A stretch of DNA of 24,767 nucleotides from Escherichia coli (GTDB lineage: Bacteria; Pseudomonadota; Gammaproteobacteria; Enterobacterales; Enterobacteriaceae), in the NCBI RefSeq assembly GCF_003334785.1, contig NZ_QOWV01000030.1. The stretch is one strand, 5' to 3'. Each line of letters begins with the position of its first letter. Position 1 is the stretch's first letter. The notes below the pieces were generated by a model. The model was not told the origin of the DNA. It saw only the letters and a list, made by a program, of their open reading frames with translations, and did no database searches. The position numbers and the translations under genes are program-made. Shown here in pieces: positions 11,065 to 14,333 of the stretch.

Positions 11065-12489
11065 ATGCAACATAAGTTACTGATTAACGGAGAACTGGTT
11101 AGCGGCGAAGGGGAAAAACAGCCTGTCTATAATCCGGCAACGGGGGACGTTTTACTGGAAATTGCCGAGGCATCCGCAGAGCAGGTCGATGCTGCTGTGC
11201 GCGCGGCAGATGCAGCATTTGCCGAATGGGGGCAAACCACGCCGAAAGTGCGTGCGGAATGTCTGCTGAAACTGGCTGATGTTATCGAAGAAAATGGTCA
11301 GGTTTTTGCCGAACTGGAGTCCCGTAATTGTGGCAAACCGCTGCATAGTGCGTTCAATGATGAAATCCCGGCGATTGTCGATGTTTTTCGCTTTTTCGCG
11401 GGTGCGGCGCGCTGTCTGAATGGTCTGGCGGCAGGTGAATATCTTGAAGGTCATACTTCGATGATCCGTCGCGATCCGTTGGGGGTCGTGGCTTCTATCG
11501 CACCGTGGAATTATCCGCTGATGATGGCCGCGTGGAAACTTGCTCCGGCGCTGGCGGCAGGGAACTGCGTAGTGCTTAAACCATCAGAAATTACCCCGCT
11601 GACCGCGTTGAAGTTGGCAGAGCTGGCGAAAGATATCTTCCCGGCAGGCGTGATTAACATACTGTTTGGCAGAGGCAAAACGGTGGGTGATCCGCTGACC
11701 GGTCATCCCAAAGTGCGGATGGTGTCGCTGACGGGCTCTATCGCCACCGGCGAGCACATCATCAGCCATACCGCGTCGTCCATTAAGCGTACTCATATGG
11801 AACTTGGTGGCAAAGCGCCAGTGATTGTTTTTGATGATGCGGATATTGAAGCAGTGGTCGAAGGTGTACGTACATTTGGCTATTACAATGCTGGACAGGA
11901 TTGTACTGCGGCTTGTCGGATCTACGCGCAAAAAGGCATTTACGATACGCTGGTGGAAAAACTGGGTGCTGCGGTGGCAACGTTAAAATCTGGTGCGCCA
12001 GATGACGAGTCTACGGAGCTTGGACCTTTAAGCTCGCTGGCGCATCTCGAACGCGTCAGCAAGGCAGTAGAAGAGGCGAAAGCGACAGGGCACATCAAAG
12101 TGATCACTGGCGGTGAAAAGCGCAAGGGTAATGGCTATTACTATGCGCCGACGCTGCTGGCTGGCGCATTACAGGACGATGCCATCGTGCAAAAAGAGGT
12201 ATTTGGTCCAGTAGTGAGTGTTACGCCCTTCGACAACGAAGAACAGGTGGTGAACTGGGCGAATGACAGCCAGTACGGACTTGCATCTTCGGTATGGACG
12301 AAAGATGTGGGCAGGGCGCATCGCGTCAGCGCACGGCTGCAATATGGTTGTACCTGGGTCAATACCCATTTCATGCTGGTAAGTGAAATGCCGCACGGTG
12401 GGCAGAAACTTTCTGGTTACGGCAAGGATATGTCACTTTATGGGCTGGAGGATTACACCGTCGTCCGCCACGTCATGGTTAAACATTAA
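11065..12489 (+). CDS. patD: NAD-dependent gamma-aminobutyraldehyde (4-aminobutanal) dehydrogenase, 474 aa
   Basis: Aldehyde dehydrogenase superfamily hallmarks: catalytic Glu in MELGGKAP and catalytic Cys in GQDCTAACR. Sits last in the ydcSTUV cluster. Confidence 0.9.
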
Positions 12490-12531
12490 GGATAATATTG
12501 CAGATCGTAAGAGTATGAGATGATCTTGCGT

Positions 12532-12560
12532 ACTGTCAGAGCACTGATTTCTCTGACAGT
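12532..12560. terminator. Perfect 10 bp inverted repeat (ACTGTCAGAG / CTCTGACAGT, 9 nt loop) between convergent patD and yncL; possible bidirectional terminator or RNA stability element
   Basis: Stem is visible directly in the sequence at 12532-12541 and 12551-12560. No U-tract follows on either strand, so function as an intrinsic terminator is uncertain. Confidence 0.35.
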
Positions 12561-12585
12561 ACGTGCTGCGTGCAAAATCACTACA

Positions 12586-12681
12586 TCAAATAAACCAGCC
12601 AAATCTCATAGAGATAAGAGTAAACAAACCAACAGCAGCAAAGAAATTTATCAGTACTACAGTTCTACTGGAAACATTCAT
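12586..12681 (-). CDS. yncL: Small membrane protein YncL, 31 aa
   Basis: Absent from the ORF track (too short). Minus-strand translation: MNVSSRTVVLINFFAAVGLFTLISMRFGWFI, stop TGA. GGTGG Shine-Dalgarno 5 nt upstream. A single predicted TM helix. Confidence 0.75.
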   Translation of the reverse strand: MNVSSRTVVLINFFAAVGLFTLISMRFGWFI

Positions 12682-12875
12682 TTTTGCCACCTTTTATCAT
12701 TGCCCCTATGTGTATAGTACGGGTTAAGAAAATCCGCAATAATACTCATTCTGAAGATGGATAAGGGCAAGTTGCTGTTTGATGATTTTTTCTCAAACTG
12801 GTGAAAAAACTTGATGTACGTCAAAAAATGACGCATATTTGCGCGCGTTTTATTCATCTGGTTGGACGCCCGTAC

Positions 12876-13049
12876 ATGTCTCTCTATCAACACATGCTTG
12901 TTTTTTATGCGGTTATGGCAGCAATCGCATTTCTTATCACCTGGTTTCTTTCTCACGATAAGAAACGCATCCGTTTCTTAAGCGCCTTTCTGGTGGGGGC
13001 AACATGGCCGATGAGTTTCCCGGTGGCGCTGTTGTTTTCACTGTTTTAA
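12876..13049 (+). CDS. ortT: Orphan small membrane toxin OrtT (YdcX), 57 aa
   Basis: Track ORF 12801..13049 (82 aa) was trimmed to the internal ATG at 12876, giving MSLYQHMLVFYAVMAAIAFLITWFLSHDKKRIRFLSAFLVGATWPMSFPVALLFSLF, a two-helix hydrophobic peptide typical of membrane-damaging toxins. No adjacent antitoxin gene is evident. Confidence 0.78.
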   Translation: MSLYQHMLVFYAVMAAIAFLITWFLSHDKKRIRFLSAFLVGATWPMSFPVALLFSLF

Positions 13050-13134
13050 ATCTTACTCACTGGCTTGACGGCACCACGCAGACTTATATCATTTGGATGA
13101 ATCGATAAATTTCACAAGTGGCTAAGGAGAAAGT

Positions 13135-13368
13135 ATGTCGCATCTGGATGAAGTCATCGCGCGCGTGGATGCCGCGATTGAAGAGAGCGTCATTGCCCAT
13201 ATGAACGAATTATTAATCGCCCTGAGCGATGACGCGGAGTTAAGTCGGGAAGATCGCTACACCCAGCAGCAACGTCTGCGCACAGCGATCGCCCATCACG
13301 GTCGCAAGCATAAAGAAGATATGGAAGCGCGCCACGAACAGTTAACCAAAGGCGGCACCATCCTCTGA
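13135..13368 (+). CDS. ydcY: Small cytoplasmic protein YdcY, 77 aa
   Basis: AGGAG ribosome-binding site 7 nt upstream. Hydrophilic and charged. Confidence 0.82.
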   Translation: MSHLDEVIARVDAAIEESVIAHMNELLIALSDDAELSREDRYTQQQRLRTAIAHHGRKHKEDMEARHEQLTKGGTIL

Positions 13369-13818
13369 TTAAAATGAGCGTCTGGCTACCAACCAGGCGC
13401 CAACCACAAGTAAAATTGCGCCACAAATTGGGCCGAACAACGCCCGTAGTGGTACGCCATGACTGCGGAAGATATCCAGCATCAGACCGCCAATCAGCTG
13501 ACTGGCGACCAGTACAGCAATAGTTGTCGCCGCTCCCACATTCTGATATCCGCTGATACTGGCGAAGACAAAAAACGATCCCAGCAAGCCAGGTATAAGT
13601 GTCCACCAGCGCACGCTGGACACCAGTTCGCCAAACCCCGCCATGCCTTGTTTAAACCATAAAATAGAAACAAAGAGCACAATCCCCACCAGTGAGTTCA
13701 GCAACATGGCGATGAGAATGGTAGAGGAGGTCTGGGTGATGCGCACCATCAGCGTGTTCTGGACAACCAGACCAATTCCGGCGGCAATCAAAAAAGCAAG
13801 GGTGAGCGACTGATTCAT
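13369..13818 (-). CDS. ydcZ: Inner-membrane protein YdcZ (DMT-superfamily-like small permease), 149 aa
   Basis: Hydrophobic four-TM protein. Its stop codon abuts the ydcY stop (TGATTA), and its start overlaps the mnaT stop in an ATGA arrangement. Confidence 0.85.
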   Translation of the reverse strand: MNQSLTLAFLIAAGIGLVVQNTLMVRITQTSSTILIAMLLNSLVGIVLFVSILWFKQGMAGFGELVSSVRWWTLIPGLLGSFFVFASISGYQNVGAATTIAVLVASQLIGGLMLDIFRSHGVPLRALFGPICGAILLVVGAWLVARRSF

Positions 13819-14333
13819 CCAATCGCGTCCGGTTCAGTGCGCTCGTCGAGTTGCAACTGCATAAATGTCAGATCCAGCCAACGACCAAATTTAGTGCCTA
13901 CCTGCGGCATTTGCGCGGTGACGACAAATCCCAGCGACTGGTGGAGATGCAGCGAGGCCTGATTTTGCGATTCGATCCCGGCGACCATGACATGCTTCCC
14001 GCAATCCCGCGCTTCATCAATCAATCGGCTTAACAATTTACGCCCCAGACCTTTGCCCTGATGATCGGGATGGACATAAACCGAATGTTCCACGGTATGG
14101 CGAAAACCATCGAAACTACGCCAGTCGCCAAACGAGGCATATCCCGTCACTACGCCGTTTTCCTCGCTCACCAGCACTGGATAACCTGCTAAAGTCCGCG
14201 CTTCAAACCAGGCAATGCGGTTATCAGCATCCACCGTTTGGTCATTCCAGATAGCCGCCGTATACAACACGGCGTGGTTATAAATTTCCGCAATGGCAGC
14301 ACAGTCGGCTTTGCGGGCAAAACGGATGGACAT
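13815..14333 (-). CDS. mnaT: GNAT-family L-amino acid (methionine derivative) N-acyltransferase MnaT (YncA), 172 aa
   Basis: Track ORF 13815..14567 is over-extended. The start was placed at the internal ATG (plus-strand cat at 14331-14333), giving MSIRFARKADCAAIAEIYNHAV.... GNAT acetyl-CoA motif around HQGKGLGRKLL. Confidence 0.85.
   Translation of the reverse strand: MSIRFARKADCAAIAEIYNHAVLYTAAIWNDQTVDADNRIAWFEARTLAGYPVLVSEENGVVTGYASFGDWRSFDGFRHTVEHSVYVHPDHQGKGLGRKLLSRLIDEARDCGKHVMVAGIESQNQASLHLHQSLGFVVTAQMPQVGTKFGRWLDLTFMQLQLDERTEPDAIG

Follow-up and report, generated by a model that had tools for sequence, protein, structure and literature searches.

A window of 24,767 nucleotides of Escherichia coli DNA (contig NZ_QOWV01000030.1), the whole stretch analysed here, carries on its minus strand a very short open reading frame that an initial annotation, made from the sequence alone, had called yncL. 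This raises the question of whether the frame is a genuine gene in the face of a longer ORF on the opposite strand, how its transcript is delimited, and by what means its product acts in the membrane.

Identity and anatomy of yncL

The ORF is the known, named, experimentally studied and routinely annotated gene yncL, and nothing in the gene itself is new. Translation of the window places its ATG at 12681..12679 and its TGA at 12588..12586 (Table 1), and its coordinates coincide with those of the RefSeq CDS described as "yncL, stress response membrane protein YncL" (WP_001310798.1). The RefSeq comparison was made with E. coli JKHS016, which is 100% identical over 801 bases and has yncL at 3287..3382 of the retrieved locus (L001). 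In that genome patD is convergent with yncL and ortT divergent, followed by ydcY, ydcZ, mnaT and curA. The peptide matches the YncL equivalog model NCBIfam NF000537 with 68.6 bits against a curated cut-off of 35 (E = 2.9e-19, profile positions 1-30 of 30), and the name, strand, length and start codon given by the initial annotation agree with both the RefSeq entry and the family model. In a six-frame scan of the window with a YncL ortholog profile, yncL alone matched (76.9 bits; runner-up 9.9 bits). Every feature that could be tested agrees with membership of the YncL family. A Pfam-A search with the peptide gave no match at E <= 10; the label PF28073 "YncL" is present in precomputed annotations of 30-aa relatives, and the Pfam-A copy searched probably predates this entry. 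A PDB sequence search returned chance-level matches only (E > 0.1) and no solved structure.

Table 1. Features of the yncL region, in window positions
Feature	Position	Strand	Description
Hairpin	12529..12563		13-bp stem, 9-nt loop; 22 nt past the yncL stop, between convergent patD and yncL
Plus-strand ORF	12520..12717	plus	65 aa, ATG start; exact antisense codon register to yncL; no gene
yncL CDS	12586..12681	minus	31 sense codons and TGA; product MNVSSRTVVLINFFAAVGLFTLISMRFGWFI
Shine-Dalgarno	12693..12687	minus	AAGGTGG; 5-nt spacer CAAAA to the yncL ATG
Putative -10	12717..12711	minus	cTATACA (C at -13, sigma-S type); ACTATA invariant in 19/19 aligned upstream regions
Putative -35	12739..12734	minus	TTGCGG; 17 nt upstream of the -10; assignment inferred from spacing
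FNR-type palindrome	12811..12824	plus	TTGATGTACGTCAA; one mismatch to TTGAT-N4-ATCAA
ortT	12876..13049	plus	orphan toxin OrtT (GhoT family), 57 aa; RefSeq annotation

The product had been described as a 31-aa peptide with a single transmembrane segment behind a GGTGG ribosome-binding site, and both statements hold: the GGTGG forms the end of the Shine-Dalgarno sequence, and the peptide has a GRAVY of 1.34, and its highest 19-residue Kyte-Doolittle window, 2.15, spans residues 7-25, in keeping with a single transmembrane helix. Counting both strands, the window contains 250 ORFs of 20-50 aa that begin with ATG, and yncL is the only one of them that combines a window of transmembrane grade with a Shine-Dalgarno-like motif, so that the combination goes beyond chance. 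The initial annotation also considered the gene to have been missed by the ORF track. It was indeed absent at the default setting, but merely as a result of the length threshold (minimum 60 aa); a listing at >=20 aa does report the frame, as a 34-aa GTG-started version (12586..12690). Similarly, the claim that only dedicated small-protein searches recover such a gene is correct historically but outdated, as the NCBI pipeline names yncL in the sampled E. coli genomes. The 801-base stretch around yncL has matches in 5,416 of 5,426 complete E. coli genomes, and a 171-base query covering yncL and its promoter alone reaches at least 80% coverage in 5,409 of them, with a yncL annotation under the match in all but one case among the matches listed.

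Coding selection and the reading frame

Orthologs were collected from 80 loci of different species with the adjacent ortT as anchor, which avoids selection for yncL conservation. In Escherichia, Citrobacter, Salmonella and Intestinirhabdus, yncL and ortT occupy opposite strands, with yncL approximately 190 bp upstream of ortT, and Pluralibacter has a gene of 47% identity and 30 codons at the same position. The conservation of the ORF and of its ribosome-binding site that had been suggested as a check is evident across these 25 orthologous loci: ATG is invariant, length is 31 codons in all but Pluralibacter, and GGTGG is kept in 25 of 26 sequences, being replaced by GGATGG in Pluralibacter. For the substitution analysis, 25 coding sequences were used (the window and 24 orthologs, with Pluralibacter left out), all differing in their DNA. 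Codon positions 1, 2 and 3 hold 9, 6 and 27 variable sites, respectively (binomial P = 4e-5 for position 3), so that 27 of the 31 third positions vary, and pooling gives a pN/pS of 0.16 for the yncL frame compared with 1.1-2.0 in four other frames and 0.29 in the fifth. The yncL ORF is therefore under purifying, protein-coding selection, and the synonymous-substitution bias whose absence was to count against the gene proved strong (27 of 42 variable sites at position 3).

These comparisons bear on two other accounts of the locus. The first takes as the true gene either the 65-aa ORF on the plus strand or, on the minus strand, the 34-aa version that begins at GTG, both of which are open in the window; in a GWAS paper, moreover, the generic gene caller Prokka is reported to have picked another ORF with the yncL sequence embedded in it (PMC8954029). 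However, the plus-strand ORF has a pN/pS of 1.34, its N-terminal part is unconserved, its frame contains stops inside the yncL overlap in several Citrobacter and in one Salmonella (Salmonella arizonae), and it does not appear in the RefSeq annotation. Since its pN/pS and the ortholog stop codons mark it as an antisense artefact, it is refuted as a gene by the comparative data, as the initial annotation had anticipated in calling it spurious. The GTG at 12690..12688 sits within the Shine-Dalgarno sequence and is thrown out of frame in three Escherichia lineages in which the spacer is 1 nt longer (6 nt), which identifies the ATG as the start of yncL, the assignment also made in Salmonella (PMC5437024). 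A gene other than the ATG-started yncL is thus extremely improbable here. The second account, that the locus is mainly a small regulatory RNA with an incidental or secondary ORF, can draw on the first cataloguing of the gene as the sRNA STnc1110 in Salmonella (PMC5437024), on the short transcript with a stable 3' hairpin, and on the published RIL-seq and TRIC-seq chimeras with RprA and with the candidate sRNA KilS. Against it stand the protein-coding substitution pattern given above, the conserved length, ATG and Shine-Dalgarno sequence, the lack of an Rfam family match and the detection of the peptide by top-down proteomics (PMC12529367), while the chimeras also fit a yncL mRNA that is a target of RprA and KilS. 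This account is accordingly very unlikely, and yncL is best read as a protein-coding gene.

As a form of quality control, the case shows that a reader working from sequence only picked out a genuine 31-codon gene and rejected the longer ORF overlapping it. It also illustrates that length-thresholded ORF tracks and generic gene callers can swap a real microprotein for an antisense artefact.

Putative promoter, transcript and neighbouring genes

Within the block assigned to the -35 element, TTG is invariant in the upstream alignment and ATTGCGGA is nearly invariant. A -10 element with C at -13 is typical of RpoS-dependent promoters. Judging from the positions of these elements, transcription of yncL would start near 12704, giving a 5' UTR of approximately 23 nt, and the transcript, framed by the sigma-S-type promoter and the downstream hairpin, would measure approximately 180 nt. 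Genomic SELEX with the RpoS holoenzyme has yielded a peak of 28.5 in the yncL/ydcX spacer, among the stronger ones of that study (PMC5493296), and a yncL-lacZ translational fusion needs RpoS in Salmonella (PMC5437024). A sigma-70 consensus scan did not detect the conserved yncL promoter. The match that it gave at 12539..12512 (minus) is downstream of yncL and at chance level (1 found, 1.5 expected), and was rejected.

The hairpin beyond the stop codon is supported by RNA folding combined with alignment, as 98.7% of cells are paired within Escherichia and two pairs show compensatory changes. The site is occupied by hairpins of other sequence in Citrobacter and Salmonella and by a canonical bidirectional terminator in Pluralibacter. 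In E. coli the hairpin has a U-tract on neither strand; it was not flagged by a terminator scan because no T-run is present, and the missing U-tract makes its role as a terminator uncertain. The hairpin is probably a 3'-end or terminator structure common to patD and yncL, and in E. coli it may terminate transcription leakily or stabilise the 3' end. Folded as a whole, the yncL transcript shows no unusual stability (z = -1.63), and the 3' hairpin alone stands out. The patD-yncL pair also appears in a published list of candidate excludons, in which convergent transcripts overlap (PMC12288877).

Structural variation was observed on both sides of the gene. The 801-base query is covered to at least 80% in one piece in 4,238 of 5,416 genomes, and at a junction on the patD side near 12480, just inside the 3' end of patD, it is split in up to approximately 22% of complete E. 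coli genomes. The two split examples inspected (L082 and L083) have an extra gene for a CatB-related O-acetyltransferase upstream of the yncL hairpin; in L082 this gene lies between patD and yncL, and in L083 patD is outside the stretch shown. The window has the shorter, K-12-like arrangement of the patD-yncL junction. L083 (NZ_CP063499.1) additionally has an IS3-family element between yncL and ortT, with the match breaking near 12714, within the putative -10, an insertion that may uncouple yncL from its promoter.

The control region common to yncL and ortT is 194 bp long, and published data place both the RpoS holoenzyme and FNR there. Its FNR-type palindrome has half-site cores (TGA ... TCAA) that are invariant in 19 of 19 upstream sequences (the window and 18 orthologs), and it corresponds to a published FNR ChIP-chip target under ydcX. 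One FNR-type match in the window equals the chance expectation; it is the conservation and the ChIP data that make the site credible. The K-12 site is printed as TTGATGCACGTCAA, one base apart from TTGATGTACGTCAA in the window, and this difference indicates that the window is not K-12. The ORF lister gave ortT as an 82-aa GTG-started form (12801..13049, plus) and a 92-aa antisense ORF across the spacer (12678..12956, minus); RefSeq annotates only the 57-aa ortT at this position and neither of these two forms. A minus-strand peptide M-R-x-x-L-T-x-I-K-F just upstream of ortT was also considered and rejected, its conservation being that of the FNR site and promoter DNA, with no gene involved.

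The gene ortT is far more widespread than an adjacent yncL. It occurs in Enterobacter, Kosakonia, Lelliottia, Leclercia, Phytobacter, Pantoea, Mixta, Cedecea and Buttiauxella without yncL as its neighbour (loci L016-L080), and a search for a diverged yncL beside ortT found none in the first six of these genera. Only in the Escherichia/Salmonella/Citrobacter group do two genes for small membrane-depolarising proteins stand side by side in divergent orientation. In Lelliottia sp. WAP21 a gene of the YncL family shares a contig with ortT at a distance of approximately 540 kb. Distant members carrying PF28073:YncL are found beside thrS and a YniD-like small protein, near yoaK with a Transgly_assoc gene on one side and a CSS-motif EAL phosphodiesterase on the other, and between a chemoreceptor gene and a GGDEF-EAL gene. 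The distance in WAP21 and these unrelated neighbourhoods led to the rejection of an obligatory yncL-ortT linkage, which is a trait of the Escherichia-Salmonella-Citrobacter group and not of the family as a whole. The distant family genes (L084-L088) tend to adjoin genes for small membrane proteins (YniD-like, YoaK) and c-di-GMP enzymes.

Membrane activity and related small proteins

Previous studies state that yncL directs the synthesis of a 31-aa hydrophobic membrane protein (PMC5437024), and synthesis of the tagged protein is recorded as cited in PMC5437024 and PMC12542507. Its induction in minimal medium, by heat shock and in stationary phase has been reported by Hemm et al. (2008, 2010), as cited in PMC12542507 and PMC12719787, and 3xFLAG-tagged Salmonella YncL was not detected (PMC5437024). 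When expressed from a plasmid, YncL, like YohP, raised DiBAC4(3) fluorescence, indicating depolarisation; it also condensed the nucleoid in approximately 50-60% of cells, and cells became hypersensitive to magainin-2 and pleurocidin (PMC12542507). The control membrane proteins MtlA and YqjD caused no nucleoid condensation, the depolarisation assay being reported for MtlA only and the peptide-sensitivity assay for YqjD only, and the authors stated that expression was not greatly above native stationary-phase levels, as measured for YohP and "likely" for YncL (PMC12542507). Cleavage of tagged YncL depended on RseP in three in vivo assays, and purified RseP gave no reproducible cleavage in vitro (PMC10470546). 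No report of a yncL deletion phenotype was found in the literature.

The peptide begins with the short polar segment MNVSSR and continues as a hydrophobic helix of 19 residues, with R-F-G-W-F conserved towards the C-terminus. Residues M1, V3, S4, S5, V8, I11, N12, A16, L19, R26, F27, G28 and F30 are invariant among 14 distinct ortholog sequences. When 1.84 billion representative proteins were searched exhaustively with a profile, 47 matched at E <= 0.001, many of them fragments or gene calls over-extended at the N-terminus; in the full-length distant members (30-32 aa, approximately 40-50% identity), MNVSS(R/K), the mid-helix Asn and (R/K)-F-x-W-F at the C-terminus are all retained. A mid-helix Asn with small residues on either side is well known to promote the association of transmembrane helices.

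Taken together, it is highly probable that yncL is a monocistronic gene of approximately 180 nt with a sigma-S-type promoter, encoding a 31-residue single-pass inner-membrane protein that depolarises the membrane on accumulation. Transcription from the promoter elements TTGCGG and cTATACA, 17 nt apart, would yield a short leader with a strong Shine-Dalgarno sequence, and the stop codon would be followed by the conserved hairpin presumed to be common with convergent patD. In the helix, the invariant mid-membrane Asn12 would act together with the small residues A16 and G18, and R-F-G-W-F could serve as an interfacial anchor. Accumulation of YncL would partly dissipate the membrane potential, lower protein synthesis and condense the nucleoid, and RseP probably removes the protein. 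Depolarisation itself could arise from a leaky bundle of self-associated helices, held together by Asn12 and the small residues, a step favoured solely from the conservation of these residues; binding to a partner protein is equally compatible with the YncL sequence. The proposal further supposes that depolarisation is the native role of YncL and not an effect of mistimed expression.

This last supposition is where a further explanation diverges, according to which YncL serves a larger membrane protein as a regulatory or accessory subunit and depolarisation is a side effect of its presence at the wrong time or level. Many characterised small membrane proteins of E. coli, such as AcrZ, MgtS, CydX and MgrB, act as subunits or regulators, and they provide the precedent for such a role. 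The face formed by Asn12 and the small residues would suit heteromeric packing as well as self-association, the adjacency of distant members to GGDEF/EAL signalling proteins, a chemoreceptor and other small membrane proteins would be in keeping with it, and the functional data on YncL, depolarisation included, come entirely from plasmid expression in exponential phase (PMC12542507). However, no partner of YncL is known, the control proteins lacked the effects of YncL at expression levels described as not greatly above native (PMC12542507), and the gene neighbourhood varies across the family, so that context indicates no consistent partner. A subunit role is consequently a possibility of the less likely kind. 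More doubtful still is the extended idea that YncL and OrtT form a co-regulated "membrane de-energising" pair, or that Asn12 with R/K-F-x-W-F constitutes a minimal self-assembling ion-leak helix across Enterobacterales. The conservation map (Asn12, A16, the RFG-F tail, the sigma-S -10 and the 3' hairpin) supplies concrete targets for mutagenesis and leaves the known picture unchanged, in which yncL is one of the small stress-induced membrane proteins.

Compared with YncL of E. coli K-12, the gene itself is no different, and the patD / yncL / ortT-ydcY neighbourhood is alike. Among other small membrane proteins, the stress-induced YohP of E. coli (27 aa) is similar in being a single helix of approximately 30 residues; in Salmonella the two were originally listed as sRNAs and are RpoS-dependent, and both depolarise the membrane and condense the nucleoid when expressed. 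The experiments on magainin-2 oligomerisation and on protein synthesis by labelling were performed with YohP only (PMC12542507), and a ppGpp effect of YohP is reported in a separate preprint. HokB, TisB, GhoT and the neighbouring OrtT share with YncL the character of small hydrophobic peptides that lower the membrane potential, and HokB and YncL are both candidate substrates of RseP. In contrast, type I toxins (Hok, Ldr, TisB, Ibs) have an antisense RNA antitoxin and a long leader, whereas YncL has neither: its 5' UTR would be approximately 23 nt, its Shine-Dalgarno sequence is exposed and its effect has been described as sublethal. The only antisense feature at yncL is the unconserved plus-strand ORF, and an Rfam search over 11500..14000 gave no match at E <= 1, so that a type I toxin gene was rejected for this locus. 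YncL thus acts somewhat like the small depolarising toxins while standing outside their families.
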